In this document: positions 14,560-61,592 of the stretch, piece by piece | How the letters are laid out: every line of letters begins with the position of its first letter | Numbering within the stretch: position 1 is the stretch's first letter | Assembly: GCA_963717745.1 (NCBI GenBank) | Contig: CAVQXJ010000002.1 | Location: 222,063 to 286,062, forward strand | DNA from: an uncultured Acidobacteriota bacterium | GTDB lineage: Bacteria; Acidobacteriota; Vicinamibacteria; Vicinamibacterales; 2-12-FULL-66-21 | Direction of reading: 5' to 3' | Length of the DNA: 64,000 bases | Program-made: the position numbers and the translations under genes | The notes under the pieces: generated by a model | The model's input: the letters and a program-made list of their open reading frames with translations, nothing else | Database searches by the model: none | What the model was told of the DNA's origin: nothing

Positions 14560-14684
14560 GAAGGTACCGGATCTCAAAAACGGAGCAACGGAGATAACGA
14601 AGAGAACGGAAAAGAAAAAATATTTTGTCTTCTTCGTTTCCTCCGTTCTCTCCGTTGCTCCGTTTTTGAGATCCGTTCCCTCGA
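14560..14684. repeat. repeat family A copy 1: AT-richer ~125-bp imperfect palindrome
   Basis: 14569-14594 GGATCTCAAAAACGGAGCAACGGAGA is the exact reverse complement of 14649-14674. Shares its termini and inner AACGGAG/AACGAAG units with 26517-26656. Confidence 0.9.
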
Positions 14685-20991: not shown

Positions 20992-23028
20992 GTCATCGCT
21001 ACGCGTTCAAGTCACTCGCTCGACGTTGCGGCGCGGTAATGCTGCTGGCGCTGCTCGGCGCCGCGGCGCCCGCGTCCGCCCAATCCTCGCTGCCCGACCT
21101 CAACATCGAAGAGCTGATGAAGCTGGACGGCGGGCAGGTCTTCGGCGCGTCAGAGCGCCTCCAGCCCGTCACCGAGGCGCCGTCGTCTGTCTCATTCGTG
21201 ACCGCCGAAGACATCCGGCGGCACGGCTACCGCACGCTCGCCGAGATCCTGCGTGGGGTGCGAGGTCTCTATGTGACCGACGATCGCAACTTCAGCTTTA
21301 TCGGAGCCCGCGGCTTCGGCAAGCCTGGCGACTACAACAGCCGGATCCTGCTATTGATCAACGGCCACCGGGTCAACGACAACGTGTTCGGGCAGGCGGA
21401 GATCGGCGCCGAGTTCGGGCTGGATCCGTCCACGTTCGAGCGGGTCGAGATCATTCGTGGCCCCGCCTCCTCCCAGTATGGCGACAGCGCTTTCTTCGCT
21501 GTCGTCAACGTGATCACCAAGACCGGCGCGTCGATCGATGGGGGAGTGGTGACGGCCGAGGTCGGGATGCTCGGCACTCGCACGACCCGGGCGAGCGCCG
21601 GACGGCGATTCGCCAACGGCGTCGACCTGGCCGTCTCGGCCGCCTTGGGCCACAGCGACGGCAACGGGCGGCTGTATTTTCCGGAGTTCGATGCGCCGGA
21701 GACCAACCACGGCATCGCCCGGAACCTCGATGCCGAGAGCGTCCGTCAGTTCTATTCGCGGCTGTCGTTCAACAAGGTGACGGTGACCGCGGCCTATGGG
21801 ACCCGGACTCGCGAAGTGCCGACCGCATCGTTCGGCACGGTCTTCAACGAGCAGGCGTTCCCCGAGCAGACGACCGATCGTCATACGCTGGTCGATGCCG
21901 AATATTTGCGGACGATCCGCGGCACGAAGGCGGCGTTCCGGGTGTCCTTCGACCAGTTCTCGTACGACGGCGACTATCCGTTCGCCGGCGACGAGAGCCG
22001 GCCGCTCCTGCTGGGCCGCAACACCGTGGTCGGCTCGCGCTGGAGCGCCAGCGCACGCGGGACGCGGACGCTGCCGGGACGGCAGATCCTGACGGCCGGC
22101 GCCGAGTTCATCGACAACTTGCGCCAGGATCAGAGCAGCGTCTTCCTCGACTCCCCAGGCGGCGGCGTGCAGGACGTGCTGGTGGATGCTCCACGCTCGT
22201 CGCGTCAACACGCGCTCTATTTTCAAGACGAGATCCGCATCAAGGATTCGATCATCCTGAACGGCGGACTGCGCTACGACGGCTACGAGCAGTTCACCCG
22301 GGTCACGCCGCGCGCCGCGTTGATCTTTCTGCCCTCGGCCAACCAGTCCTTCAAGTACCTGTTCGGGCGCGCCTTTCGCGCGCCGAGCGCCTACGAGAGC
22401 ACCACGTTCTACTTCGGCGACTCGGTGGAGCAGCTCCAGCCCGAATCCATCGATACCCACGAGCTGGTGTGGGAACGCTACTTCAACGACGCACTGCGCA
22501 CGTCGGTGTCGACCTATTGGTACAAGGCGGAGCGTCTGCTCACACTGGTACCCGACGACACCACGTTTCTGGGGTCCCGGTACGTCAACGCGGGGGAAGT
22601 CCACGCCTCGGGGGTCGAGCTCGAAGGGCAGCTCCGCATCACCAGCAACGCGCAGGCGCACTTCAGCTACGCGCTGCAGCGCACCGAAGATCAGGACTCG
22701 CAGACCGAGCTTCCCAACTCCCCGCGTCACATGGCGAAAGGTCGGCTCAGCATTGCCGGTCCGTCGCGTGGATCTTCGATCGGTGTCGAAGGTCTGTTCA
22801 TGAGCAGCCGACAGACGCTCCTCGGTTCGCGCCTCCCACCCGCCGGCACGGTGCACCTGACGGTGATCCAGCCGCTCGGCCGGGCATGGGATCTGCTCGT
22901 TCACCGCCCGGAACCTGTTCGACGTGACCTATGCCGATCCGGCGTCGAGCGCCCACCGGCAGGATGCAATCACACGGAACGGCCGGACCGCACGCGTCGG
23001 TCTCACCTGGAAGTTCTGGAAACCCTAG
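20988..23028 (+). CDS. TonB-dependent outer-membrane receptor; reading frame broken about 45 codons before the end
   Basis: Signal peptide plus plug (EAPSSVSFVTAEDIRRHGYRTLAEILRGVRGLYV). The canonical C-terminus FTARNLFDVTYADP...GRTARVGLTWKFWKP* is encoded in the +1 frame from about 22900 to 23028. Confidence 0.85.
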
Positions 23029-23195
23029 TCCCCTGGAAGGGTGATGACTCGCCCAATTCCCGGGCGGGGCATCCCGGTTGGCGGCGTTGCTCATCGCTCA
23101 CATATGTCCAATATGCTCGCTCTTCGCGCCTTGCCAGCCGGGCGCCGCGCTCCGGGATTTAGGCAAGTCATCACCCTTCCATTGGACGGGACGCC
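23025..23195. repeat. repeat family F copy 1: TIR-bounded ~171-bp element with conserved ~100-nt core
   Basis: Core 23058-23157 matches 61461-61559 at about 84/100 by eye. Inner perfect 15-bp IR at 23035-23049 / 23166-23180. Outer arm 23179-23195 resembles the 61573-61592 TIR. Confidence 0.85.
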
Positions 23196-23990: not shown

Positions 23991-25345
23991 GCCGGATCGA
24001 TCACGACGCCAACGATCGGGTGCTGCGCGCGTTTCAGCATGCCGCCGGCCTGCCGTGGTACCGCACGCTGCTCGACGAGCACGGTGTGCGCCCGCCGGAC
24101 ATCACCGACGCCGCCAGCTTCATCGATCGTTGCCCGGTGTTGAACAAGAGCAACACCTTCGATCGCTTTCCCCTGCACGAGCTCGCGCCGCGGGTCTCGA
24201 TGTCCGAGCTCGCCAGTGTGCTCACGAGCTCCGGTCACGGTGGGCGGTTCTCGTTCGGCCTGACGACGCGGAAGGATGCCGGCGAGAGCGCGTCGGTCAT
24301 CGACTACGCGCTCGATCGCGCATTCGCGGTCGAATCGCGCCCCACCCTGGCCATCAACTGCCTGCCGATGGGGGTGACGTTCTCGTCACGGGCGATGACG
24401 GTGGCCACGGTCAGCGTGCGGGAGGACATGGCAGTGGCGCTGGTGCGCGCGTTCGGCGGCTACTACGAACAGATCCTGCTGGTGATGGATCCGCTGTTCG
24501 CCAAGCGGCTGACCGATTACGCGGCGGCGGAGGGGCTCGACTGGAGCCGGTATCGGATGCAGGTGGTGATCGGTGAAGAGGTATTCGGCGAGCACTTCCG
24601 CGAGTACCTCGGGAGGTGCCTCGGCCTGCATCCCGATCGGCCGGAGGACGGCTACGTGATGTCGTCGTTCGGGGTTGGCGAGCTCGGCCTGCACCTGTGC
24701 TACGAAACCCCGGCGACGATCGCGCTGCGGCGCGCGATCCGCAGCGACGCGGCGCTGGCCCGCGATCTCCTCGGCGGCTCGCACGACGAGGGCGCGGTGC
24801 CGGCGATCCTGAGCTACGAGCCACGCCGGACCTTCATCGAAAGCGTCGACCCCGATCCGCACGGCTACGGGTGGCTGACGGTCTCGATGCTCGATCCCGA
24901 GCTGCCGGTGTCGCTGCTCCGCTATCAAACCGGCGACACCGTCAAGATCCTCGAGCGCGATGCCGCGGTCGAGGCGCTGCGGAGTCACGCCGCCGATGCG
25001 AGCGCGCTGCCGCAGGATCTGCTGGCGCTGCAGGGGCGGGAGAAGGATCGCCTTCCGAACGGCTCGCACGTCGCGGTCTACAAGGATGCGCTGTACGCCG
25101 ATCCGGCGATTGCCAGGCAGGTGACCGGCGCCGTCCGCTTGACGTTCACGGGTTCCGACTGCACCGTGCACGTGCAGTTGATACCGGGTGCGACCGCGGA
25201 CACCGGTCTCACCGGGCGCTTGATCGAGGTGCTGCCTGCGGCGGCGCGCCCGGCCGACGTGGTGTGGTGGTCCTACGAGCGCTTTCCGTTCGGGATGACG
25301 CTGGACTACGAGCGCAAGTTTCGACAGTACGTGGGCGGGGTCTGA
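23987..25345 (+). CDS. adenylate-forming enzyme, phenylacetate-CoA ligase / coenzyme F390 synthetase-like
   Basis: ATGA start-stop overlap with the acyltransferase gene. SVLTSSGHGGRFSFG (P-loop-like), VVIGEEVFGEHFREYL, LLRYQTGDTVKIL. Confidence 0.75.
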   Translation: MSRIDHDANDRVLRAFQHAAGLPWYRTLLDEHGVRPPDITDAASFIDRCPVLNKSNTFDRFPLHELAPRVSMSELASVLTSSGHGGRFSFGLTTRKDAGESASVIDYALDRAFAVESRPTLAINCLPMGVTFSSRAMTVATVSVREDMAVALVRAFGGYYEQILLVMDPLFAKRLTDYAAAEGLDWSRYRMQVVIGEEVFGEHFREYLGRCLGLHPDRPEDGYVMSSFGVGELGLHLCYETPATIALRRAIRSDAALARDLLGGSHDEGAVPAILSYEPRRTFIESVDPDPHGYGWLTVSMLDPELPVSLLRYQTGDTVKILERDAAVEALRSHAADASALPQDLLALQGREKDRLPNGSHVAVYKDALYADPAIARQVTGAVRLTFTGSDCTVHVQLIPGATADTGLTGRLIEVLPAAARPADVVWWSYERFPFGMTLDYERKFRQYVGGV

Positions 25346-25358
25346 CGGACCGCTGAGA

Positions 25359-25463
25359 CCCCGCCTGTCAAGGGACAAGGGACAAGGGAGAAAGACAAGG
25401 GAGAACTCCCGGATGTGGGTCGAGTAGTAGGAGCTTGTCCCTTGTCCCTTATCCCTTGTCGTT
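25359..25463. repeat. repeat family B copy 1 (hairpin form, GGGACAA/GGGAGAA heptamer arms)
   Basis: CCCCGCCTGTCAAGGGACAAGGGACAAGGGAGAAAGACAAGGGAGAAC, then a loop, then CTTGTCCCTTGTCCCTTATCCCTTGTCG. The right arm overlaps the last codons and stop of the O-methyltransferase gene. Confidence 0.85.
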
Positions 25464-26492: not shown

Positions 26493-26516
26493 TGTCGAGA
26501 CGTTCGGAGATGGTCG

Positions 26517-26656
26517 GAGGTACCGGATCTTAAAAACGGAGCACCGGAGCCAACGAAGAAAACGGAGACGTCACTAGTGTTTTGGTTTCCAAAAGAAATG
26601 TCTTTTCCGTTGCCTTCGTTGGCTCCGTTGCTCCGTTTTTGAGATCCGGTATCTCC
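26517..26656. repeat. repeat family A copy 2: ~140-bp imperfect palindrome
   Basis: The left arm GGAGGTACCGGATCTTAAAAACGGAGCACCGGAGCCAACGAAGAAAACGGAGACG pairs with 26601-26656 with few mismatches. Confidence 0.9.
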
Positions 26657-26690
26657 GCACTCGACCTCCGGTCCGACGTCTCGCCAGAGC

Positions 26691-28506
26691 TCAGAACGCG
26701 TCGGGGACGGTCACCGGAATCCGGCCGGTGAGGACCTGCATCCATCGCCAGGCCGCGTTGGTGAGGATCACGATCACCGACACCATCATCATGATCGTCA
26801 GCCCGGTGTTGAGGTAGCCCTGGAAGTGCAGGGCGGGATTCGGTCCGATCGCCATCGGCCAGAAGTTGTCTGCACGCTCAGCACGCCCGCGGTCAGGGTG
26901 GTCACCGCCACGAACGAGAGCGGCAGCAGCGTGACCCACGCATAGCGCGCCTTGCCGCTGTTGATGATGATCGTCGTGCCGACCGCGAGCGCGACCGAGG
27001 CGAGGAGCTGGTTGGCGATCCCGAACATCGGCCAGATGGTGCTGATGCTGCCGGTCCAGATGAAATAGCCCCAGGCGCACACCACCAGCAGCGTGGACAC
27101 CACCGATCCGGGAATCCAATCCTGTCGGGCCATCGGCGCGTAGAACTGACCGAAGAACTCCTGCACCAGAAAGCGGGCGACCCGGGTGCCGGTGTCGATG
27201 GTGGTGAGGATGAACAGCGCCTCGAACATGATGGCGAAGTGATACCAGTAGTCCATCAGGCCGCGCATGCCGGGCAGGCCGGTGAAGATCTGCGCGATGC
27301 CGACCGCGAGCGAGACCGCGCCGCCGGGGCGGCCGGCGACGGTCTCGCCGACCGCGCTCTCGAGCTGCGGCAGGTTGACCACCGGAATGCCGAGGGTGGC
27401 GAAGGTGGCGGGCGAGGTGTTGATGGCGAAGTAGTCGCCCGGGTGCATCGCGGTCGCGGCGACGAGCGCCATGATCCCGACCAGGCCCTCGATCAGCATC
27501 GCGCCGTAGCCAATCGGCCGGATGTCGCTCTCGCGGTCGATCATCTTCGGCGTGGTGCCGGAGGCGATCAGGGCGTGGAAGCCGGAGATCGCCCCGCAGG
27601 CGATGGTGATGAAGGCGAAGGGAAAGACCGGTCCCGGAATGATCGGCCCGCCGCCGGCGGACGAACGGGCCGATCGCCGGCATCTGCAGCACCGGGTTCA
27701 CCACCATCACCGCGATCACGAGAAAGATGATGGTGCCGATCTTCATGAACGAGCTGAGATAGTCGCGCGGGCAGAGCAGCAGCCAGACCGGCAGCACCGA
27801 CGCGATGAAGCCGTAGATGCCCATCGCCACGATCAACTCGTTCGCGCGACAACTGGAAGAGCGGCCCCCACTCCGACGCGGCGATCGGCTTGCCGAGGAT
27901 CACGGCGAGCAGCAGGCCGGCCACGCCGATCGCGGTCGCCTCGGCGATCCGCCCCTTGCGGAAGCGGTACATGTAGAGGCCCATGAACAGGGCCAGCGGA
28001 ATCGACGTGCCGATGGTGAACGCGCCCCAGGCGCTCTCGTGCAGGGCGTTCACGACCGCGAGCCCGAGGCCGGCCAGGGCAATGACGATGATGAAGAGGA
28101 TCGCGACCGCCGCGGTGGCGCCGGCGACCGGCCCGATCTCTTCCCGGGTGATCTGCGCGAGCGATCGTCCTCCCCGCCGGGTCGAGGCCCAGAGGATGAT
28201 GAAGTCGTGGACCGCACCGGCCAGGCAGACGCCGGCGACCAGCCAGATCAGGCCCGGCGCCCAGCCGAACTGGGCGGCCAGGACCGGCCCGATCAGCGGT
28301 CCGGCGCCGGTAATTGCGGCAAAATGATGACCGAACAGCACGAAGCGGTGGGTCGGATGATAATTCTGCCCATCATTGCGCAGGTGCGCCGGGGTGATGC
28401 GCCGATCGTCGAGGGCCATGATCCGGGCCGCGATGAAGGCGCTGTAGTAGCGATACGCGATCGCGAGGATACAAAGGATGGGCAGGATGAGGTACAGAGC
28501 GCGCAT
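26691..28506 (-). pseudogene. cstA: carbon starvation protein A (CstA) gene with three frame disruptions
   Basis: CstA-like sequence is spread over ORFs 27568..28506, 26691..27836 and 26798..27544 ([57 protein letters not shown]). Frame switches near 27845, 27660 and 26872. Confidence 0.85.
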
Positions 28507-31500: not shown

Positions 31501-31615
31501 GGCGATGCGCGTCAATCTGTTCGGCTTCGCGGTCGGCGAAATCGATTTCGTCCGCCCGCTCGACCGGCCGGGGCGTGGATGGCTCTGGCAGTTCAACCTG
31601 ATGCCGGGCTTCTAG
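28559..31615 (+). CDS. outer-membrane multidomain protein: MA-clan HExxH peptidase-like N-terminus + TolB/PD40 beta-propeller repeats + Omp85/D15-type beta-barrel
   Basis: ORF 28478..31615 trimmed to ATG 28559 (signal peptide). HELVHAFQ...FIEGMAEYLS. PD40-like WSPDGxxxxF repeats. The C-terminal FNAEIRFPLWG...GEIDFVRPL...WLWQFNLMPGF is Omp85-like. Confidence 0.8.
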   Translation: MAKIRASVTWRLSTLVLALAILAIPVAAQAQGGYFGRNKVQYRKFQFQVLKTEHFDIHFYPEEEAAARATARMAERWYARLSKLLNHELRGRQPVILYASAPHFWQTTALEGEMGEGTGGVTEAYKRRIVLPLAGPLQLTDHVFGHELVHAFQYDITNTNVSSGNGGALNLPLWFIEGMAEYLSIGPVDPHTSMWMREAARREKLPTIDQLDDPRYFPYRYGHALWAYIGGRFGDEVVGDMLRAGGLSRGGYEVAFEGVLQVKTADLSKEWHDTLFQAYRPIAEATKMPADIGRPVIKKRREGELNVSPELSPDGSKVIFFSERDLFSIDLFVADAKTGEVLRKITDTATSAHTESLQFIASAGAWDQTSKKFVFPGIARGQAVLTIVDVDRAKKEREIAIAGVDEVQNPTWSPDGNSIAFSGMAGGFTDLFVYDLSANQLKRLTTDQFAELDPAWSPDGKTLAFSTDRFTTNLQTLVAGDFRLALLDLAAGTIRTAGGFEGAKNISPQWTTDGKALYFVSDRGGISNIYRTEFGGATTQLTNLLTGISGITELSPSLSAADGRLVFSAYEDNGYTIYALETAAQLAGVPVQELPINAAVLPPRKEGAGPVFAALENETLGLPPESAAAVPAEEYKPKLGLDFAGQPTIGVGRDPFGTYAAGGVSFVFSDMLGNHTLYTGAQVTSRFDEFGGTATYINRTHRWNWGVSLDQTPYVYRTFGAGISVVQGVPVYVEEEFRILQIDRSLSGLISYPFSRSLRVDFSGGGRQIGFKQDQTTRLFDYNSGQQLSQDRTTISDEPMLNLGEASGALVFDTAINGITSPIRGSRYRLEAAQTTGSLTFTGLTADFRTYLMPVRPFTFAFRGLYYGRHGGDAEDQRLPTLYLGYPGLVRGYDSGSFESTECGITADGSCPAFDRLLGSRVAIFNAEIRFPLWGALGGSNFYGPLPIEMAVFADSGVAWGQNNSPFFGGSNKEPVTSVGAAMRVNLFGFAVGEIDFVRPLDRPGRGWLWQFNLMPGF

Positions 31616-31623
31616 GGAGCTTC

Positions 31624-31660
31624 GCTGTCAAGGGAGAAGGCAGAAGGGAAAAGGGAGAAC
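31624..31660. repeat. repeat family B copy 2 (single arm)
   Basis: GCTGTCAAGGGAGAAGGCAGAAGGGAAAAGGGAGAAC lies between two convergent stop codons. Its last 34 nt are identical to the reverse complement of 52014-52047. Confidence 0.85.
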
Positions 31661-32139
31661 TAGATCGACTCCAGCTGCTGGTAGTGGTGGATGTCGTGGC
31701 CAGCCATCTGCGCCGCGATCCACCACACGTTCAACGTCCCGAACTCCGGGTGCGTGAACGTGCGTTCCCGCTGCTTCGTCGTCAGTGCCCGCCACATCCC
31801 CAGGTTCATGTCCCGCAGCGATGTATAGGCGTTCAGTGCGGTCCGGGCGGCCATGCCGCTGTCGAGCGGTATCCAGTCGTCTTGTGAGAACGACTGCGCG
31901 TTGTACTCATCCTGGCTGAGCGCATACCGGGCGCGCGTCGTCAGCGCCAGCTCGGTCTGCGCCAGGTGGATCAGGATCTGCCGGGCGCTCCATTTGCCAG
32001 TCGCATAACTGCGTTCGAACTCCGCGTCCGTCCAGCCGTCGACCAGGGCTCGAATCTTCCCGGGGGTGTCGCCGAGCGCCTCGAGCGGCTCGCGATCGCC
32101 GAGCGGAGCGCCGTAGGGGTTGGGGGCAATCTGAGTCAT
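31660..32139 (-). CDS. DinB-family metal-dependent four-helix-bundle protein
   Basis: WSARQILIHLAQTELALTTR...MAGHDIHHYQQL, a typical DinB His triad context. Confidence 0.8.
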   Translation of the reverse strand: MTQIAPNPYGAPLGDREPLEALGDTPGKIRALVDGWTDAEFERSYATGKWSARQILIHLAQTELALTTRARYALSQDEYNAQSFSQDDWIPLDSGMAARTALNAYTSLRDMNLGMWRALTTKQRERTFTHPEFGTLNVWWIAAQMAGHDIHHYQQLESI

Positions 32140-32175: not shown

Positions 32176-32312
32176 ACCCCCAAATCCCTAATCACTAATC
32201 CCAAGCTCCCTAATCCGCAATCCCTCAACTCCCAAATCCACTGAATCCCAGATCCCTAATCCGAACCTCGCGAACCCGCGGAACCCGGACTGGACAGCGG
32301 ACAGCGGAGCAG
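32176..32312. repeat. repeat family D copy 1: degenerate 7-8-nt tandem units (TCCCTAATC ... CGCGAACCC ... GGACAGC GGACAGC)
   Basis: 32261-32307 CCGAACCTCGCGAACCCGCGGAACCCGGACTGGACAGCGGACAGCGG matches the reverse complement of 42221-42270 (about 38/47 by eye). Confidence 0.8.
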
Positions 32313-35390: not shown

Positions 35391-35430
35391 CCCTTTCAAC
35401 CTTCGGAGGGGTGTGGCCGTCCAAGCTGCC

Positions 35431-36678
35431 ATGAAAATGCTCCTCGCCTCCAGCCTCTTGACCGCGTCCGTGCTGATATCCGGACCGGTCGATCAACAGC
35501 CCGCCGGCTCGGCGGCAGCCATGTCGGGCACCTGGCGGGCGCGGCTGTCGGAGACCTGGACTCGCCGGGACGGCGAGCGCTGGGTGTCGTTGAATCTGCA
35601 GCGCGACGGCAATCACAACTACGGCACGTCGGTGCGCCAGTCCGAGCTCGAGGCCGCCGGCATCCGCGGCGAGTCGTTCTCGGGCAGCAACGTGCATTTC
35701 TCGCTGCCGCGGGCCGCCGGCCGGTTCGAGTTCGAGGGCTCGTTCGACTCGGGCCGCGGCGGCGGGACGTTCCGCTTCACGCCGGACGCCGCGTTCATCT
35801 CGTCGCTTCAGAAGACCGGGCGTCAGGTGTCGACCGACGACGCCCTGCGGCTGGCGCTTCATGATGTGGATCAGGCCTTCATCGCGTCGATCGAGGCCGC
35901 CGGCTACAAGGGCGTGAGCGTCGAGGATCTGATCAAGATGCGCATCCACGGGGTGGACGCCGACTACATCAGCGGCCTGCGAAAGGCCGGCTACACCAGC
36001 CTGTCCGTCGAGGATCTCATCAAGACCCGGATTCACGGCGCCACCCCCGCCTACGTCGCCGAGATGCGCAACGCCGGCTATACCGGCCTGTCCATCGACG
36101 ACCTGGTGAAGACCCGGATTCACGGCGCGACCCCGGCGTTCATGCAGGAGGTGAAAGCCGCGGGCTTCGAGCGGCTCTCGGTGGACGATCTCGTGAAGAT
36201 GCGGATCCACGGCGTGTCCGCCGACTTCATCCGCCAGATGCGCGCCCTCGGCCACAAGGAGCTGACCATCGACGACATGGTCGGCATGCGGATCCACGGC
36301 GTCAGCCCCGAGTTCATGAAAGAGATCAGCGCGCTCGGCTACCCGAACCCGCGCATCAAGGATCTCGTCGCGATGCGGATTCACGGCGTCACCGCGGCGT
36401 TCGTCAAGGAGCTGGCGGCGCTCGGCTATACCAAACTGTCGATCGACGACCTCGTGAAGATGAAGATTCACGGTGTGACCCCGCAGTTCATCCGCGAGCT
36501 CAAGGATCTCGGTTACGGGTCGGTGGCCTCCGAGCGGCTGGTGCAGTTCCGCATCCACGGCGTGGATGGCGAGTTCATCCGCGAGGTGCAGAAGGCCGGC
36601 ATGAAGGACATGACAGAACAGGAGCTGGTGGAGTTCAGCATCCACGGCGGCCGCCGCTGGCTGCGCCGGACACGTTAG
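35431..36678 (+). CDS. secreted tandem-repeat protein (about nine 29-aa LSxDDLVKMRIHGVTPEFIxELxxxGY repeats)
   Basis: ORF 35413..36678; ATG 35431 gives a signal peptide (MKMLLASSLLTASVL). Nine IHG-centred repeats with 87-nt DNA periodicity from about 35830 to 36660. Confidence 0.8.
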   Translation: MKMLLASSLLTASVLISGPVDQQPAGSAAAMSGTWRARLSETWTRRDGERWVSLNLQRDGNHNYGTSVRQSELEAAGIRGESFSGSNVHFSLPRAAGRFEFEGSFDSGRGGGTFRFTPDAAFISSLQKTGRQVSTDDALRLALHDVDQAFIASIEAAGYKGVSVEDLIKMRIHGVDADYISGLRKAGYTSLSVEDLIKTRIHGATPAYVAEMRNAGYTGLSIDDLVKTRIHGATPAFMQEVKAAGFERLSVDDLVKMRIHGVSADFIRQMRALGHKELTIDDMVGMRIHGVSPEFMKEISALGYPNPRIKDLVAMRIHGVTAAFVKELAALGYTKLSIDDLVKMKIHGVTPQFIRELKDLGYGSVASERLVQFRIHGVDGEFIREVQKAGMKDMTEQELVEFSIHGGRRWLRRTR

Positions 36679-36696
36679 CGGGGCAGAGGAAGAGAA

Positions 36697-36740
36697 CCCC
36701 GCGTGTCAAGGGAGAAGGCAGAAGGGAGAAGGGAGAAAGG
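36697..36740. repeat. repeat family B copy 3 (single arm)
   Basis: CCCCGCGTGTCAAGGGAGAAGGCAGAAGGGAGAAGGGAGAAAGG ends 1 nt before the rdgB stop codon. Preceded by the small hairpin GCGGGG-N13-CCCCGC. Confidence 0.85.
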
Positions 36741-42503: not shown

Positions 42504-42539
42504 ACCAACCTTCGCGTGACAGGAGAGCGAAGGTTGGTG
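42503..42539 (-). terminator. 13-bp-stem hairpin at the 3' end of ssrA
   Basis: CACCAACCTTCGC-N11-GCGAAGGTTGGTG. One arm includes the tmRNA ACCA end. No clear U-tract. Confidence 0.45.
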
Positions 42540-42888
42540 GAGGCGGCGGGATTCGCACCCGCGTCCGAAAATACTTCCCCGCAGGAATCTACGATGCGTA
42601 TCCGCTTCTATTTTGTCGCTCCCGACGTGTGGAAGCGGCGAAGAACCGTCGGGAGCCAACCCCAGAAAATCTTATCGCTGACGTCTGAGGCACCCGTCAG
42701 CAACCAGCCTACTAAAATGACATCCACTCCCGGCCCGCAGGCTGACCGGGGTAGACGCTCACAGGTTCTTAGGCTGCGAGTGCGAGCTGCGTGTCCGCAG
42801 TTAGTGTTGTTTCCATCTTTTGTCGAGGGTGATGGTCCTCGGCACGCATCCTGCGAAACCGTACCTCCGTCGAATCTAGGTCGCCCCC
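42535..42888 (-). ncRNA. ssrA: transfer-messenger RNA (tmRNA, SsrA)
   Basis: Minus strand starts GGGGGCGACCTAGATTCGACGG and ends GGACGCGGGTGCGAATCCCGCCGCCTCCACCA (tRNA-Ala-like acceptor/T-arm). Internal tag frame GCG GAC ACG CAG CTC GCA CTC GCA GCC TAA gives ADTQLALAA. Confidence 0.93.
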
Positions 42889-48937: not shown

Positions 48938-49272
48938 CGACGATACGACGATACGACGATACGACGACAACGACGTAATGCTGTGGCCACGAGGGAACGT
49001 CGGGGCATCTCCTAAGTGCCCTTTGCTATGACCAGCCAGCCACGTATCAACGGTTCTCCCCGTTGGCGGCGACGCCGGCCTTCGGCCGACGTTGACAGGA
49101 GTGAGGATCGGGAAGATCACAAGCAGTCGGGGTCTTTGAATGGACTGCTTGTGATTTTCCCGATCCTCACTCCTGTCACCGCGCGTAGCGCGGCGCCGCC
49201 AACGGGCAGCGTCCGTCGAAGTGACTCACAAGGGTTTTGTCTTACGTCGTGTCGTCGTGTCGTCGTCTCGTC
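48938..49272. repeat. ~335-bp nested imperfect palindrome (family E; inner hairpin = family G copy 2 at 49091-49180)
   Basis: Three tiers. (ACGACGAT)x3-4 at 48938-48980 pairs with CGTCGTGT-type units at 49242-49272. 49059-49077 pairs with 49189-49206. 49094-49128 pairs with 49143-49177 (34/35). Confidence 0.85.
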
Positions 49273-52006: not shown

Positions 52007-52013
52007 GCGAGAA

Positions 52014-52055
52014 GTTCTCCCTTTTCCCTTCTGCCTTCTCCCTTGACACGCGGGG
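52014..52055. repeat. repeat family B copy 4 (single arm, reverse orientation)
   Basis: GTTCTCCCTTTTCCCTTCTGCCTTCTCCCTTGACACGCGGGG is the reverse complement of the B consensus. Lies 8 nt after the stop of the upstream gene. Confidence 0.85.
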
Positions 52056-52079
52056 CGCCCATCAGCCCGCCAACCCGGC

Positions 52080-53406: not shown

Positions 53407-56320
53407 ATGACCAGGTACGTCGTTCGGTGTGTGTTGGCGTTGCTCCTCGGCGTAGCTCCGGGCTACGCGCAGCAGGGAACCACGGAAGTGCGCGGCCGCG
53501 TACTCGACGCGCAGGGCGCCATGTTGCCGGGGGTCACGGTGAACGTGCGCAACCAGGACACCGGCATGTTCCGCGAAACGATCTCGAACGCCGACGGCAC
53601 GTTCTTCGTCAGCGGGATCGTGCCGGGACGGTATGAGATCGCCGCCGAGCTGCAGGGATTCAAGAAATTCCTGCGCCGGGACGTGGTGCTGGAGATCGGA
53701 AAGACCGCCACGGTCGACGTGCCGCTCGAAGTCGGCCAACTCTCGGAAACGGTGAACGTGTCCGCCGACTCGCCGCTGATCGACACGAGCTCCAAGGAAG
53801 TCGGCGGCAACATCACCGGACGCGAGCTCGTCGATCTGCCGTCGATCAACCGCAACTTCATCGGGTTCATCGGGCTGCTGCCGGGAATCGTACCCAGCAT
53901 CAGCACCGAATCGTTCGGCTCGGACTCGATTTCGGTGAACGGCTCCGACCCGCGGAACAACAACTACATGCTCGACGGCGGCAACAACAACGACGACGTC
54001 ATCGGACAGCGGGCCGGGACCCAGGCCCGGACCGCGCTCGAATCGGTCCAGGAGTTCCAGGTCATCACCAACCAGTTCGACGCCCAGTTCGGGCGCACGA
54101 CCGGCGCGATCATCAACGCGGTGACCAAGAGCGGCACCAACGTCTTTCACGGCAGCGCCTTCGGCTTCGCTCAGGACGCCGATTGGACCGCCAAGGACTA
54201 TTTCGCCAGGACCCGCGAGCTGAGCAAGCCGGACACGCAGCGGCGCGAGTTCGGCGGCACCCTCGGCGGTCCGATCGTCAAGGACCGCGCTCACTTCTTC
54301 GGCAGTCTCGAGCGCGTCATGATCGATCGCGGTGCGGCGCTCGTGTTTCCGAGCCGGCCGGATCTCAACTGGAGCCCGACCACGCAGGACCGGGTGTGGA
54401 ACACGCTCGCGAAGTTCGACCAGCAGCTGAGCGCGGGACAGACGTGGAGTCTGCGCTACCTGCGCGAGGCTCTCTCCGCAACGGAACCAGGCCATCGGCC
54501 AGGTGGCGCCCGGCGCGATTCGAGAAGAGGACGACAAGGATCAGACCGTGGTCGCCGCCGTGTCGTCGGTGTTCGGCAACACCAAGCTGAACTCGCTGCG
54601 GATCGGCTGGACGCAGGAGGACGTGTCGTTCGGCAATCCCTGCTTCAACGGCAATGGGCGCGACCAGGCCGCCTGCGACCCCACCCTGGCGTTCCAGACC
54701 TTCACCGACCAGCAGGCCAACACCGCGCAGGCGCGCGTGAACGACGCCTACCAGATCGAGAACACGTTCACCTGGTTCGTGCCGAACAAGGGCGGCGATC
54801 ACGACATCAAGCTCGGAGCGCAATACGAGTACATCGAGGCCGACAATCTGGCGCAGGACAACTTGAATGGCACCTTCTCGTTCGGCCAGAACGACCTGCC
54901 CTTCGACCGCAACAATCCGCGCACCTATCCCGATCGCCTGACTATCCGCGTGCCCGGCCAGGGGCGCGTCTTCGAGAAGGCGCACTACTTCTCGGTCTTC
55001 GCGCAGGACAAGTGGAAGCTGACCAACCGGGTCACGGCCACGATCGGCCTCCGCTACGATCGCGAAGAGATTCCCGTCCCGGAGCGGAACAATCCGGACT
55101 TTGCCGACGTGAACGACTACCCGGTCGACGGTGACAACTTTCAGCCGCGAGTCGGCGTGTCCTACAGCCTGGATCAGGCCGGCCGGCGGCTGGTCCGCGC
55201 CGGATACGGCCGCTTCTACGACAAGACGCACTTCGAGATCATCGGTGGCCTGTTCAACAACGGGCTCTTCTCCGAATCGTTCACGGTCAACTTCCCGACC
55301 ACCGCGGCGGATCCCGGCCCGCGCCTCGGACAGTTCCCGACCGACCCGTTCCTCGTGAACGGACCGGTCCTCAATCGCGAGCTGCTGAACCAGCGGTTCC
55401 CCCCCGGCAGCGCGCTGAGGAACGCCGGCAACATCACGCTCGACAATCCGAACCGCGAAATTCCGCGATCGGATCAGGTGTCGGTGGGCTATGAGCACCA
55501 GATCGGCGGGACGATGTCTGCCAGCGCGGATTTCGTCCACGTGGCCGGCCGCGGCCTGTTCATGACCTTCGACAAGAACAAGGGGGTGCGTACGACCACG
55601 GTGTCCACCAGCCCGGTCGTCCGCCCCGATACCACGCTCCAGGCGGTCAACACGTTCATCAACGTCGGGGAGACCGAGTACGACGCGCTGCTGCTGCAGC
55701 TCGAAAAGCGGCTCGCGCGCGGGTTCAGCGCGCGCGTCTCGTACACGCTGTCGTCGGCGCGGGGCAACACCAGCTCGAATGGCTCCGGCGCGATCAACTT
55801 CCAGGCTGGGCAGGACCTGAATCTGGGCCTCAACGAAGGAGCCAGCGACTTCGATCGCCGTCACAACCTCGCCGTCAGCGGGCGCCTGCTCGTGCCCTAC
55901 ACTCACGGGATGACGTTCAGCTGGGTGGCACGCGCGCTCAGCGGGCTGCCGTTCACGCTCACCAACAACACCATCGACGTCGATCGCAACGGCACGCTGT
56001 TCGATCCCATCGCTGCCGGAACGTATACCGGCGGCGGTACGCGTGCCGCCGACAACTACTCGGCGGACTTCGACGGCGGACGCAACGGCGCTCGAGGCCC
56101 GGGCTTCTTTCAGCTGGATACGCGCTATGGGTGGCGGCTGCCGCTCGGCCAGGGCCGGACGCTCGACGTCTCGGCCGATGTGTTCAACCTCACGAATCGC
56201 GCGAACTTCGCCAATCCGAGCGGCAATCAGGGCGCGTTGGCGACCTTCCTGGTGCTCTCGGCCCTGCGCGACGGCGCCGCGCCGATGACGCTCCAGGTCG
56301 GTGCGCGCTTGGGGTTCTAG
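53407..56320 (+). CDS. TonB-dependent receptor with CarboxypepD_reg-like N-terminal domain; frame broken near 54470
   Basis: MTRYVVRCVLALLLG signal. GRVLDAQGAMLPGVTVNVRNQDTG...DGTFFVSGIVPGRYEI. Plug region. Sequence continues from ...WSLRYLRE (frame of 53074 ORF) to SPQRNQAIGQVAPGAIREEDD (frame of 54503 ORF). Ends ...LQVGARLGF. Confidence 0.85.
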
Positions 56321-56329
56321 CGGCTGAAC

Positions 56330-56446
56330 CCCCCCGCGTGTCAAGGGAGAAGGGAGAAGGCAAAAGGGAGAACTGACGGATTCGCGCCAAGAAATAGGAG
56401 ACTCCCCCTTCTCCCTTCTCCCTTTTCCCTTGTCGGCGTCAGGGGG
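56330..56446. repeat. repeat family B copy 5 (full hairpin, ~43-nt arms, ~30-nt loop)
   Basis: The left arm CCCCCGCGTGTCAAGGGAGAAGGGAGAAGGCAAAAGGGAGAAC pairs with the right arm CCCCCTTCTCCCTTCTCCCTTTTCCCTTGTCGGCGTCAGGGGG. Confidence 0.9.
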
Positions 56447-58280: not shown

Positions 58281-58394
58281 GCAATGCCAAAAATGCCAAA
58301 AATGCCAAGAGTGCCAAAACTGGGGGGCACTGCCGCGCGTTTTCCACCCCCGCACTTTTGGCATTCTTGGCCCTTTTGGCATTTTTGGCATTCC
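58281..58394. repeat. family C hairpin: ~40-nt arms made of ATGCCAAAA nonamer repeats
   Basis: The left arm GCAATGCCAAAAATGCCAAAAATGCCAAGAGTGCCAAAAC pairs with the right arm GCACTTTTGGCATTCTTGGCCCTTTTGGCATTTTTGGCATTCC. Occupies most of the 121-nt spacer between the two ABC genes. Confidence 0.9.
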
Positions 58395-58400
58395 TGAACA

Positions 58401-60221
58401 ATGTCGGTCCACGACGAAGAAATCCTCGGCAAGGCCTACGACTCGGTGCTGATGCGGCGGCTGCTGCGTTACCTGCTGCCGTACCGCGGCCAGGTGGCGC
58501 TGGCGCTGGTGGCCATCATCCTGGCGGCGGGGCTGCAGCTCGCGCAGCCGTACCTCGTGAAGATCGCGATCGATCGCCACATCCAGCCCGGGAACCTCGC
58601 CGGTCTGGACGGGATTGCCGTGGCGTTTCTCGCGATTCTGCTGGCGTCGTTCACGCTGGAGTTCCTCCAGACCTGGACGCTGCAGCTGACCGGGCAGCGC
58701 ATCATGTTCGACATGCGGCTCCAGATCTACCGGCACCTGCAGCGGCTCGACGTCCAGTTCTACGATCGCAATCCGGTCGGCCGCCTGATGACCCGGGTGA
58801 CGACCGACGTCGACGTGCTGAACGACATGTTCACCGCCGGCGTGGTCTCGATCTTCGGCGACCTGTTCATGCTCACCGGCATCATGATCGTGCTGGTGGT
58901 GATGGACTGGCGGCTGGCGCTGGTGGCGTTCTCGGTGCTGCCGCTGATCGCGATCGTGACGCAGTGGTTCCGCCGCAACGCCCGGGAATCGTACCGCGTG
59001 GTGCGGACGCTGATCGCCCGGATCAACGCCTTCCTGCAGGAGCACATCACCGGCATGTCCACGGTGCAGCTGTTCCGCCAGGAAGACCGGACCTTCGGGC
59101 GGTTCGACGAGATCAACCGCCGGCACCGCGACGCCAACGTGCAGTCGATCTTCTACTACGCGGTGTTCTACCCCGCGATCGAGGTGATCGGCGCGCTGGC
59201 GGCGGCGCTGATCATCTGGTTCGGCGGCGGATGGACGATGGCCGGGACGCTCACGCTCGGCTCGCTGGTGGCCTTCCTGCAATACTCGCAGCGGTTCTTC
59301 CGGCCGATCAGCGACATGTCCGAGAAGTTCAACGTGCTCCAGGCCGCCATGGCGTCCTCCGAGCGCATCTTCAAGCTGCTGGACACGCCGGTGAAGATCG
59401 CACCGGACCAGCGATTCGACCAGCCGCCGGCCCGCGCGCGGAGCGCGGCCCTGCGGTCAACAGGGGATCGGGCCACCAGCGGCTCGATCGTCTTCGAGGA
59501 CGTGTCGTTCGCCTACAACGAGACGGACTTCGTCCTCCGGCACGTCTCCTTCGAGGTGAAGCCCGGAGAGCGGGTCGGCATCGTCGGCGCGACCGGCGCC
59601 GGCAAATCGACGTTGATCAACCTGATCCTGCGCTTCTACGACACCACCAGCGGGCGCATTCTCGTCGACGGGGTCGATGTCCGCGACCTGGAGCTCCAGC
59701 CGCTGCGCGACAAGTTCAGCCTGGTGCTCCAGGACGTGCACCTGTTCTCCGGCACCATCGCGTCGAACATCAGGCTGGGCAGCACCGCCATCACCGACGC
59801 CCAGGTCCGCGCCGCGGCCAGCGCGGTCCACGCGGACCAGTTCATCGCGGCGCTGCCGCAAGGCTACGACCATCCGGTTGCCGAGCGGGGCGCCACGCTC
59901 TCGGTCGGCCAGAAACAGTTGCTGTCGTTCGCCCGGGCGCTTGCGTTCGACCCGGAGATCCTGGTCCTGGACGAGGCGACGTCCAGCGTCGACACCGAGA
60001 CCGAGCTGATCATCCGCGATGCCCTCAAGGTGCTGATGGCGGGCCGGACCACGCTGGCGATCGCCCACCGCCTGTCGACCATCCAGGACATGGACAAGAT
60101 CCTGGTGATGCACCATGGCGAGCTGCGTGAGGCCGGCACGCACCAGGAACTCCTGGCGCGGCGCGGCATCTATTACAAGCTGTATCAGTTGCAGTTCAAG
60201 GATCAGGAGTTGGGGGCCTGA
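58401..60221 (+). CDS. ABC exporter, fused permease/ATPase (MdlB-like), second of the pair
   Basis: GATGAGKST, LSVGQKQLLSFARA, ILVLDEATSSVD, TTLAIAHRLSTI. Confidence 0.9.
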   Translation: MSVHDEEILGKAYDSVLMRRLLRYLLPYRGQVALALVAIILAAGLQLAQPYLVKIAIDRHIQPGNLAGLDGIAVAFLAILLASFTLEFLQTWTLQLTGQRIMFDMRLQIYRHLQRLDVQFYDRNPVGRLMTRVTTDVDVLNDMFTAGVVSIFGDLFMLTGIMIVLVVMDWRLALVAFSVLPLIAIVTQWFRRNARESYRVVRTLIARINAFLQEHITGMSTVQLFRQEDRTFGRFDEINRRHRDANVQSIFYYAVFYPAIEVIGALAAALIIWFGGGWTMAGTLTLGSLVAFLQYSQRFFRPISDMSEKFNVLQAAMASSERIFKLLDTPVKIAPDQRFDQPPARARSAALRSTGDRATSGSIVFEDVSFAYNETDFVLRHVSFEVKPGERVGIVGATGAGKSTLINLILRFYDTTSGRILVDGVDVRDLELQPLRDKFSLVLQDVHLFSGTIASNIRLGSTAITDAQVRAAASAVHADQFIAALPQGYDHPVAERGATLSVGQKQLLSFARALAFDPEILVLDEATSSVDTETELIIRDALKVLMAGRTTLAIAHRLSTIQDMDKILVMHHGELREAGTHQELLARRGIYYKLYQLQFKDQELGA

Positions 60222-60279
60222 CGCTCGACAAGGGACAAGGGGTGCCTTCTCCCTTCTCCTTTGTCAGCGTCAGGCCCCC
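60212..60279. repeat. repeat family B copy 6 (hairpin variant), probable bidirectional terminator
   Basis: GGGGGCCTGACGCTCGACAAGGGACAAGGGG ... CCTTTGTCAGCGTCAGGCCCCC. The left stem contains the ABC gene's TGA. The right stem ends 3 nt before the convergent gene's stop. Confidence 0.85.
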
Positions 60280-60282
60280 AGC

Positions 60283-61427: not shown

Positions 61428-61592
61428 CTAGTGTCCCGTCCCAGTGGTTCGCGACACAAGTCCCGGGCGGGGCATCCCGCCTCGCAGCGTTGCTCCTCGC
61501 TCAGATACTCCCGGTATCCTCGCTCGTCGCGCCTTGCGATCCGGGCGCCGCGCCCGGGACTCATGCCACGATCCACTGGGACGGGACACTAG
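61428..61592. repeat. repeat family F copy 2: perfect 20-bp TIRs + conserved ~99-nt core
   Basis: CTAGTGTCCCGTCCCAGTGG (61428-61447) is the exact reverse complement of 61573-61592. Core 61461-61559 is homologous to 23058-23157. Confidence 0.9.

Follow-up and report, generated by a model that had tools for sequence, protein, structure and literature searches.

A 64,000-nt stretch of contig CAVQXJ010000002.1 (positions 222,063 to 286,062 of the forward strand; assembly GCA_963717745.1) from an uncultured Acidobacteriota bacterium of the order Vicinamibacterales, called the window below, carries six copies of a repeat built from GGGAGAA-type heptamers, which we refer to as Family B. Family B is probably a dispersed, nonautonomous palindromic repeat of soil Vicinamibacterales-like Acidobacteriota, either a doublet of repetitive extragenic palindromic (REP) sequences (a REPIN) or an element of the MITE (miniature inverted-repeat transposable element) kind. 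It is a bacterial repeat of a known kind, in a phylum for which the searchable literature holds no earlier description; our literature search found no paper on these repeats in Acidobacteria and nothing on the repeat content of Vicinamibacterales.

The initial annotation of the window had listed three full hairpins and three single arms of this repeat, and all six copies were recovered at those positions, in DNA with a G+C content of 67%. The 14-mer GGGAGAAGGGAGAA matched the window 20 times with two or fewer mismatches, compared with 0.27 ± 0.53 matches expected from dinucleotide-preserving shuffles; a relaxed scan for 21 nt, or three heptamers, counted seven window arms, and unrelated control loci totaling 774 kb had none; and a half-element profile hidden Markov model (HMM) matched these six loci in the window and nothing else. 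TRF reported a period of 7 with 4.3 copies. The division into hairpins and single arms was borne out by folding. As RNA, the three full copies reached −53 to −76 kcal/mol with z scores of −4.4 to −8.0, except for copy 1 on the plus strand (z −1.8), whereas the single arms (copies 2, 3, and 4) folded no better than shuffles (z −0.5 to +1.7). Positions 31627-31660 are the exact reverse complement of 52014-52047, as had been reported, so the arms of copies 2 and 4 are identical over 34 nt. The positions given earlier thus stood, but the conserved unit reaches further out than had been drawn (HMM matches 56316-56374, 52073-52013, and 31602-31661), and copy 6, though present, is a short and diverged version of the element.

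A 21-nt arm pattern matched at least 120 metagenome contigs, mostly from soil and rhizosphere sets, and deduplication left at least 116 distinct sites, including those of the window; all counts of 116, 102, 43, 30, and 29 copies given below are drawn from the matches listed in that scan. The ABC protein encoded at 58401-60221 of the window has a database entry of 100% identity on a 360-kb contig, and its more distant homologues carry Vicinamibacterales names. The full unit is ~110 to 150 nt long, longer than the consensus first described, and is framed by TAG-tagged outer inverted repeats (TAGCAGGCTGATGAAAAACCCCGCGTGTCAAGGG...). Its left end reads TAG-CAGGCTGATGAAAAA-CCCCGCGT-GTCAAGGG and leads into the purine arm; this is followed by GAGAAC and a loop (CTGACGGATTYACGCCAGAAAA...), conserved and ~25 nt long, by the pyrimidine arm, and by CCCTTGTC-GGCGACAC-TTTTT-CAGCAACCTG-CTA, within which ACAC-TTTTT-CAGCAACCTG-CTA is the right outer inverted repeat. 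The inner ends are GTCAAGGG and CCCTTGTC. The two arms are complementary, each typically with four heptamers (GGGAGAA GGCAGAA GGGAAAA GGGAGAA), and folding of the family consensus runs from one end to the other, at −86 kcal/mol on one strand and −96 kcal/mol on the second. Arms contain between 2 and 7 units, most often 4 (67/116 copies), and the number differs between orthologous copies, as in loci L202 and L226. Unit 2 is GGCAGAA in 74/116 copies, unit 3 is mostly GGGAAAA or GGCAAAA, and unit 4 is GGGAGAA in 54; unit 1 is GGGAGAA in 116/116 only because the search pattern fixes it. The loop and the outer repeats are conserved across loci, and in the loci retrieved the outer repeat was found solely alongside Family B arrays.

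The 102 evaluable copies comprise 51 hairpins and 51 single arms. Both long outer repeats, CAGGCTGATGAAAA and TTTTCAGCAACCTG, are present in 17 of them (11 hairpins and 6 single arms), and one repeat is present in 23. Since six single arms retain both outer repeats, these are internal deletions of hairpins. The fixed order of unit variants, the conserved loop, and the conserved ends, found at more than 100 unrelated loci, argue for descent from master sequences and not for local slippage. Long copies mostly end in TA-GCAGG...CCTGC-TA. The tetranucleotide at the end of the 30 copies with an outer motif is GTAG in 8, CTAG in 4, TTAG in 1, and ATAG in 1; TAA or TGA stands there in 6 copies, and none of these in 10. 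Some copies also contain a small local stem (GCGGG...CCCGC). The window copies are at the diverged end of Family B: copy 5 has C5/G5 in place of the A5/T5 of the family consensus, and copy 4 retains CTGATGG. Two metagenome loci, L140 and L151, hold chimeric hairpins in which the left arm and loop of Family B are followed by a (GCGAACC)n arm from another family that replaces the Family B right arm. A search of a plasmid collection gave only a borderline 30-nt match in Klebsiella plasmids, and a phage collection gave none. In a 15-mer scan of a genome collection, for which the pattern was too short, the 106 listed matches were all single chance matches in unrelated taxa, with no array among them. 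An Rfam search returned no family match for the element at the gathering threshold or at a permissive one.

Family B is tied to the 3′ ends of genes, as had been proposed from the window. All six window copies lie 0 to 18 nt from a stop codon (gaps of 13, 8, 18, 7, and 9 nt for copies 1 to 5; copy 6 is overlapped by an open reading frame [ORF]), and five of the six lie between convergent genes (P = 0.005), copy 5 being the one between codirectional genes. The repeat sometimes provides the last codons or the stop: the end of an O-methyltransferase (GNDKG and its stop) is encoded inside the right arm of copy 1, and the TGA of the ABC gene at 58401-60221 lies in the stem of copy 6. For the metagenome loci, neighbors were assigned by a crude gene call based on G+C content at third codon positions, which resolved both neighbors of 29 copies. 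Twelve of these contexts were convergent and 17 codirectional; not one was divergent, for which P is 2.4e-4 under an expected share of one quarter. We then compared abutting ORFs, defined as those ending at most 50 nt upstream of a copy, with the other ORFs of the same contigs. TAG was the stop codon of 28/43 abutting ORFs and of 47/164 background ORFs (Fisher P = 2.6e-5), and the distances of ORF ends peaked at 21 to 23 nt, exactly at the TAG of the outer repeat. At the right end, the CTA is often the stop of the convergent gene and lies 28 to 36 nt from the last heptamer. The excess of TAG and the peak at the outer-repeat TAG indicate that the element brings, or regenerates, the stop codon, and this is why terminal codons are sometimes supplied by the repeat.

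The copies differ among close relatives. Six retrieved contigs show synteny with the 54- to 64-kb part of the window; their second ABC protein is 87 to 99% identical to that of the window. Copies 5 and 6 are both missing in L107 and L229, whose ABC proteins are 98 to 99% identical, and no Family B array was found anywhere in the L107 or L108 contig. At the copy 5 site, L107 (98%) has a (GGTTCGC)n hairpin, L108 (CAGCTAT)n, L232 (CAGCTTC)n, and L230 (CAGTTTC)n; conservation extends over the coding sequence at the flanks and the motif GCTATACTCAG. In the hairpins orthologous in position to copy 5 (L108 4840-4925, L232 2055-2180, and L230 2925-3035), the unit has changed in concert in both arms with complementarity kept; the right arms of the L108 and L232 hairpins merge with AGCTATACTCAG, a conserved flank. 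At the copy 6 site, the convergent stops are separated by 2 nt in L107 and by 1 nt in L232; L229 (99%) has an unrelated 49-nt spacer, and L108 and L230 have another heptamer hairpin. The C-terminal residues of the ABC protein vary with this site (QELGA, QERAG, QEQAG, and QELLSR). At the copy 2 site, L231 (DinB 89% identical) carries a different hairpin. Its 5′ arm lengthens DinB by six residues, and a (GCGGTTC)5 array comes next. Gain, loss, and replacement of the elements thus take place on a time scale over which the adjacent proteins barely change.

Family B shares features with several described systems. Those described in print that come closest are the heptameric G-rich intergenic repeats, with the unit GGGAATC in Xanthomonas and GGGGAYT in Nostoc (Rehm et al. 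2015, PMC4692102). In Xanthomonas, four units are the preferred array size, the upstream ORF is ~28 nt away, and each genome has 70 to 75 inverted pairs; the same work cites heptanucleotide tandem repeats from Calothrix (short tandemly repeated repetitive sequences, STRR) (PMC4692102). Like these repeats, Family B has tandem G-rich 7-nt units with an array size of four favored, and it is a heptameric simple-sequence repeat in that its units run head to tail and vary in number between relatives. The Xanthomonas and Nostoc repeats are ~90% intergenic and very near the upstream ORF, in some cases over its stop, and Family B is likewise stop-adjacent; both are rare between divergent genes, occur as lone arrays and as convergent inverted pairs able to form stem-loops, vary in length and sequence between close relatives, and have no assigned function. 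Unlike the Xanthomonas repeats, Family B has a fixed order of unit variants, conserved nonrepeat ends and loop, often long outer inverted repeats, and mostly no canonical G-quadruplex (G4) potential (present in 14/116 arms). Moreover, Xanthomonas repeats are reported at conserved, stable locations, whereas Family B sites differ among close relatives.

Among palindromic repeats, the GTAG-tagged REPs, with the bacterial interspersed mosaic elements (BIMEs) and REPINs, are moved by REP-associated tyrosine transposases (RAYTs) (Di Nocera et al. 2013, PMC3733652; Ton-Hoang et al. 2012, PMC3333891). In GTAG REPs, termini frequently provide the TAG stop, singletons are what remains of dimers, and hybrid dimers occur as well; the RAYT-like TIRYT (terminal inverted repeat-associated tyrosine) transposases have been reported in other Acidobacteria (PMC3733652). 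Family B resembles REP/REPIN sequences in lying downstream of coding regions and between convergent genes, in termini that often give a TAG stop, in inverted doublets that form one long stem-loop alongside singletons that are decayed remnants, and in strong strain-to-strain variation; the B/GCGAACC chimeras recall REP hybrid dimers. It is unlike them in that its module is a heptamer array, not a GC-rich palindrome of 20 to 40 nt. REPs bear a conserved GTAG or CGTC tetranucleotide at one end of this imperfect palindrome; in Family B, GTAG is present in just 8/30 copies. As expected of a MITE, there are many dispersed copies within the ~50- to 500-nt size range, with terminal inverted repeats in the subset that has the outer repeats. 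The Correia elements of Neisseria are MITEs with TA targets. Family B is like them in its length of 100 to 150 nt, terminal inverted repeats, TA-G...C-TA ends as expected for a TA duplication, many intergenic copies, internal deletion variants, and whole-element RNA hairpin; the internal tandem heptamers are its own. We know of no autonomous insertion sequence with the ends of Family B. The ends TA-GCAGG...CCTGC-TA would imply a TA target duplication, and no orthologous empty site with a single TA was found at the loci compared. With GTAG in 8/30 copies on one side and a putative duplication on the other, Family B may belong to the REPs or to the MITEs.

We take the REPIN/MITE-like reading as the probable one, and under it the history of the family would run as follows. 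Copying from master sequences would have spread the arms, ends, and loop now common to more than 100 loci; heptamer number would then drift through replication slippage, and internal deletions would convert hairpins into single-arm remnants. Copies would survive almost only in the few bases behind stop codons, where insertions spare genes and promoters. The element's own TAG and TGA triplets would close any reading frame that was clipped, which would be why the repeat sometimes supplies terminal codons. A full copy in a 3′ untranslated region (UTR) is predicted to fold into a 30- to 60-bp hairpin, and an effect of full copies on RNA is possible. Its likeliest form would be a 3′-end barrier, giving protection from 3′-5′ exonucleases and damped read-through between convergent genes, as with REP/BIME and Correia elements and not in the manner of a canonical hairpin-plus-U-tract terminator. 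The reading that remains would be that of a selfish or nearly neutral palindrome tolerated at 3′ ends. Several observations weigh against a mobile origin or against any role for the copies. In 62/102 copies there is no long outer repeat, whether lost or never present. An RNAalifold analysis of the outer flanks of 21 copies, trimmed and anchored at their inner ends, gave an invariant inner stem only, with no covarying outer pairs, in a test weakened by flank indels. No transposase gene was found among the 40 window ORFs scanned. Comparison of L107, L108, and L229 to L233 gave no clean empty site; these relatives show absence, other hairpins, or rearranged remnants and differ at the compared sites by replacement, not by simple insertion. 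Finally, any function must be dispensable, because near-identical relatives lack the element.

Other explanations account for parts of these data. Selected bidirectional intrinsic terminators, in which an A-tract/T-tract hairpin would stop both convergent genes and serve as a reusable cassette, seem to us unlikely. The tuberculosis rho-independent terminators (TRIT) of M. tuberculosis, which are repeated terminator hairpins, offer a parallel: as in TRIT and in bidirectional intrinsic terminators, a conserved hairpin recurs at convergent 3′ ends, and the main stem of the Family B consensus is preceded by AAAAA and followed by TTTTT. Copies lie directly behind stops and are enriched between convergent genes (5/6 in the window and 12/29 at metagenome loci), and relatives carry different hairpins at the same sites, as though some hairpin were wanted. 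However, T4 or more follows the right stem in just 12/43 hairpin copies and both tracts are present in 6; none of the three window hairpins has a T-run after the stem (copy 5 has its C5/G5 there); the stems are several-fold longer than terminator stems; and half of the copies are single arms, which stay unfolded. In relatives with 89 to 98% identical ABC proteins these sites are empty, the convergent stops being sometimes 1 to 2 nt apart, and a strong hairpin is missing altogether from ~34 of the 41 gene 3′ ends in the window. Sites combining a hairpin with a T-run occur in the window at chance frequency (11 versus 8.6 and 11 versus 7.9 in shuffles). In short, the position behind a stop or between convergent genes is that of a canonical intrinsic terminator and the stem with its T-run is not, and that reading is weak and doubtful. 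The terminator role proposed in the initial annotation is not supported, given the lack of T-runs in the window, the unfolded single arms, and the relatives that lack the element at orthologous sites. It had also been speculated that the copies act as a sponge for RNA-binding proteins, as Shine-Dalgarno (SD) or anti-SD sequences, or as a triplex. A function of the sequence itself, with the purine strand titrating a CsrA-type GGA-binding protein or ribosomes or forming a G4 or triplex, or with the C-rich strand as a Rho-loading (rut) site, strikes us as highly improbable. Single arms are indeed unstructured purine or pyrimidine tracts, and related G-rich Xanthomonas heptamer arrays form G4 in vitro (PMC4692102). 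In hairpin copies, though, the GGA motifs are paired with the pyrimidine arm and buried in the stem, relatives have unrelated heptamers without GGA at the same sites, no CsrB/Rsm-like Rfam match was found, and the element brings with it neither promoter nor terminator; nothing here thus supports the sponge, SD/anti-SD, or triplex ideas. Four G3 runs occur in only 14/116 arms because units 2 and 3 usually have GGC. At 11/15 resolvable single-arm copies, the convergent gene would transcribe a C-rich, G-poor strand right behind its stop, and Rho loading by that strand may be kept as a minor alternative.

The remaining explanations concern how the arrays arose. Under a purely local origin, slippage would have grown each array and hairpin-templated repair would have made the arms symmetrical, with nothing mobile involved. 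Among long simple repeats, those with heptanucleotide units are the most abundant class in most prokaryotic genomes, and slippage has been named as the cause (PMC4679880; PMC4692102); unit number varies between orthologues, as in the pair L202 and L226; and at the copy 5 site of L108, L232, and L230 both arms have changed together among (CAGCTAT)n, (CAGCTTC)n, and (CAGTTTC)n. What local slippage leaves unexplained are the nonrepeat parts (outer repeats, inner ends, and loop) that more than 100 unrelated loci have in common, the unvarying order in which unit variants follow one another, and the identical 34-nt arms at two loci. On these grounds slippage is a modifier, not the origin, and we regard a wholly local origin as very unlikely. 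Alternatively, Family B could be one member of a distinct Vicinamibacterales class of long hairpins with arms of tandem 7- to 9-nt units and a generating mechanism of its own. The unit families seen are GGGAGAA, GGTTCGC, CAGCTAT/CAGCTTC/CAGTTTC, GTCCTGG, TTGCCAAnA, and AACGGAGnn, and this variety, together with the concerted unit changes at one site, suggests such a class from the sequences compared; we nevertheless rate it as quite unlikely. If the class is real, unit families would replace one another at the same gene ends, changing in concert in both arms, through a dedicated generating or propagating mechanism, e.g., a TIRYT/RAYT-like Y1 enzyme that would use folded single strands as its substrate, or conversion templated by the hairpin; or else they would be modular 3′-end signals. 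Neither would be ordinary MITE spread plus slippage.

Four more specific candidates were rejected. An integron attC site does not fit the context of housekeeping, syntenic, convergent genes. The CUGAUGA of the outer repeat recalls the hammerhead ribozyme, whose three-way junction has a CUGAUGA...GAAA core, but in a permissive Rfam search the canonical copy and copy 5 gave only subthreshold matches to long-hairpin microRNA precursors. A G4 with four or more G3 tracts 1 to 7 nt apart fails for 102/116 arms, and one of the nine window arms qualifies. A CsrA/RsmA-titrating small RNA of the CsrB/RsmZ type would be an independent gene with many GGA motifs exposed in loops or single-stranded spacers, which Family B is not.

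Table 1. Family B copies in the window, with profile HMM and folding values (z scores against shuffles; paired values are for the two strands)
Copy	Form	Position	Strand	Details
1	Full hairpin	25359-25463		Arms (GGGACAA/GGGAGAA)n; z −1.8 / −4.7
2	Single purine arm, GTCAAGGGAGAAGGCAGAAGGGAAAAGGGAGAAC	31602-31661	+	HMM E 3.9e-13; z +1.5
3	Single purine arm	36678-36740	+	HMM E 8e-13; z −0.5
4	Single purine arm with recognizable outer repeat, GGCGGGCTGATGGGCGCCCCGCGTGTCAAGGG	52013-52073	−	HMM E 5.3e-15; z +1.7
5	Full hairpin (flagged locus)	56318-56446		HMM E 1.6e-15; −69 / −76 kcal/mol; z −4.4 / −5.3
6	Short, diverged hairpin, GGGGGCCTGACGCTCGACAAGGGACAAGG...CCTTCTCCCTTCTCCTTTGTCAGCGTCAGGCCCCC	60209-60281		HMM weak (E 0.099); −64 kcal/mol; z −8.0

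The copies of Table 1 differ in how they meet their neighboring genes. Copy 1, whose right arm encodes the end and stop of the O-methyltransferase gene on the minus strand, is preceded by a small hairpin (25336-25363) that holds the TGA of the upstream gene. Copy 2 occupies the 44 nt that separate the TAG of a PD40 protein gene from the stop of the convergent DinB gene. The arm of copy 3 is preceded by a small hairpin (GCGGGG...CCCCGC) beginning within the TAG stop, and the convergent RdgB/Ham1 gene has its stop immediately behind the copy. Copy 5 starts at the TAG of a gene for a TonB-dependent-type outer-membrane protein and has 30-nt arms and the conserved loop CTGACGGATTCGCGCCAAGAAA; an ABC gene starts 25 nt downstream. 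The end of copy 6 lies 2 nt before the stop of a convergent 3D-domain gene.

The window also holds other palindromes and arrays. Between the two ABC genes (58283-58392) there is a hairpin with 45-nt arms of 9-mers, (AATGCCAAA)n; related 9-mer hairpins (TTGCCAAGA and TTGCCAACA) stand at that site in L108 (6700-6835), L230 (4820-4990), and L229 (60-105), only a remnant is left in L107 (4040-4070), and in L232 (3950-3957, a 2-nt spacer) the site itself is gone. Another palindrome family, with ~60-nt arms of AACGGAGnn units and ends GGTACCGGATCTCAAAAACGGAGC, occurs at 14562-14681 and 26515-26657, the former copy being in a divergent (promoter) region, unlike Family B. A further inverted-repeat family, at 23028-23187 and 61428-61592, has arms of 46 to 55 nt and the inner end CCCGGGCGGGGC. 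Isolated long hairpins lie at 981-1057, where a perfect 32-bp stem stands right behind a stop at 996, and at 49090-49181, with 39-nt arms of 95% complementarity. Between the start of the DinB gene and the gene for an extracytoplasmic function (ECF) sigma factor, a run of about eleven heptamers resembling CCCTAAT leads into a short (GCGAACC)n array (32179-32290), and both arrays are kept at the orthologous place in L231 (3820-3950).

Three observations concern other genes of the window. On the minus strand at 26691-28506, the carbon starvation protein CstA is divided between two ORFs that overlap and differ in frame (Pfam positions 2-223 and 225-282); its homologue in L231 is annotated with 604 residues, the gene running over the end of the locus. 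The split is a frameshift: either the gene is a pseudogene or the assembly contains an error. On the minus strand, 42535-42888 is a gene for tmRNA (Rfam RF00023, 163 bits). Finally, two sets of 87-nt tandem repeats (~2.7 copies each) at 35898-36492 lie inside the ORF at 35413-36678, whose protein has no Pfam match and, because of them, has 29-residue repeats; copy 3 follows the stop codon of this ORF.

Vicinamibacterales are among the most abundant and least studied soil bacteria. For the annotation of their genomes, a defined family of 3′-end palindromes explains ragged C termini and odd stop codons; for assembly, such elements break short-read contigs, and many of the metagenome matches end in the repeat; and for typing, the family is a marker of strain-level variation. 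After Xanthomonas and the cyanobacteria, Family B provides a second, independent lineage in which to ask why arrays of about four heptamers gather behind stop codons.

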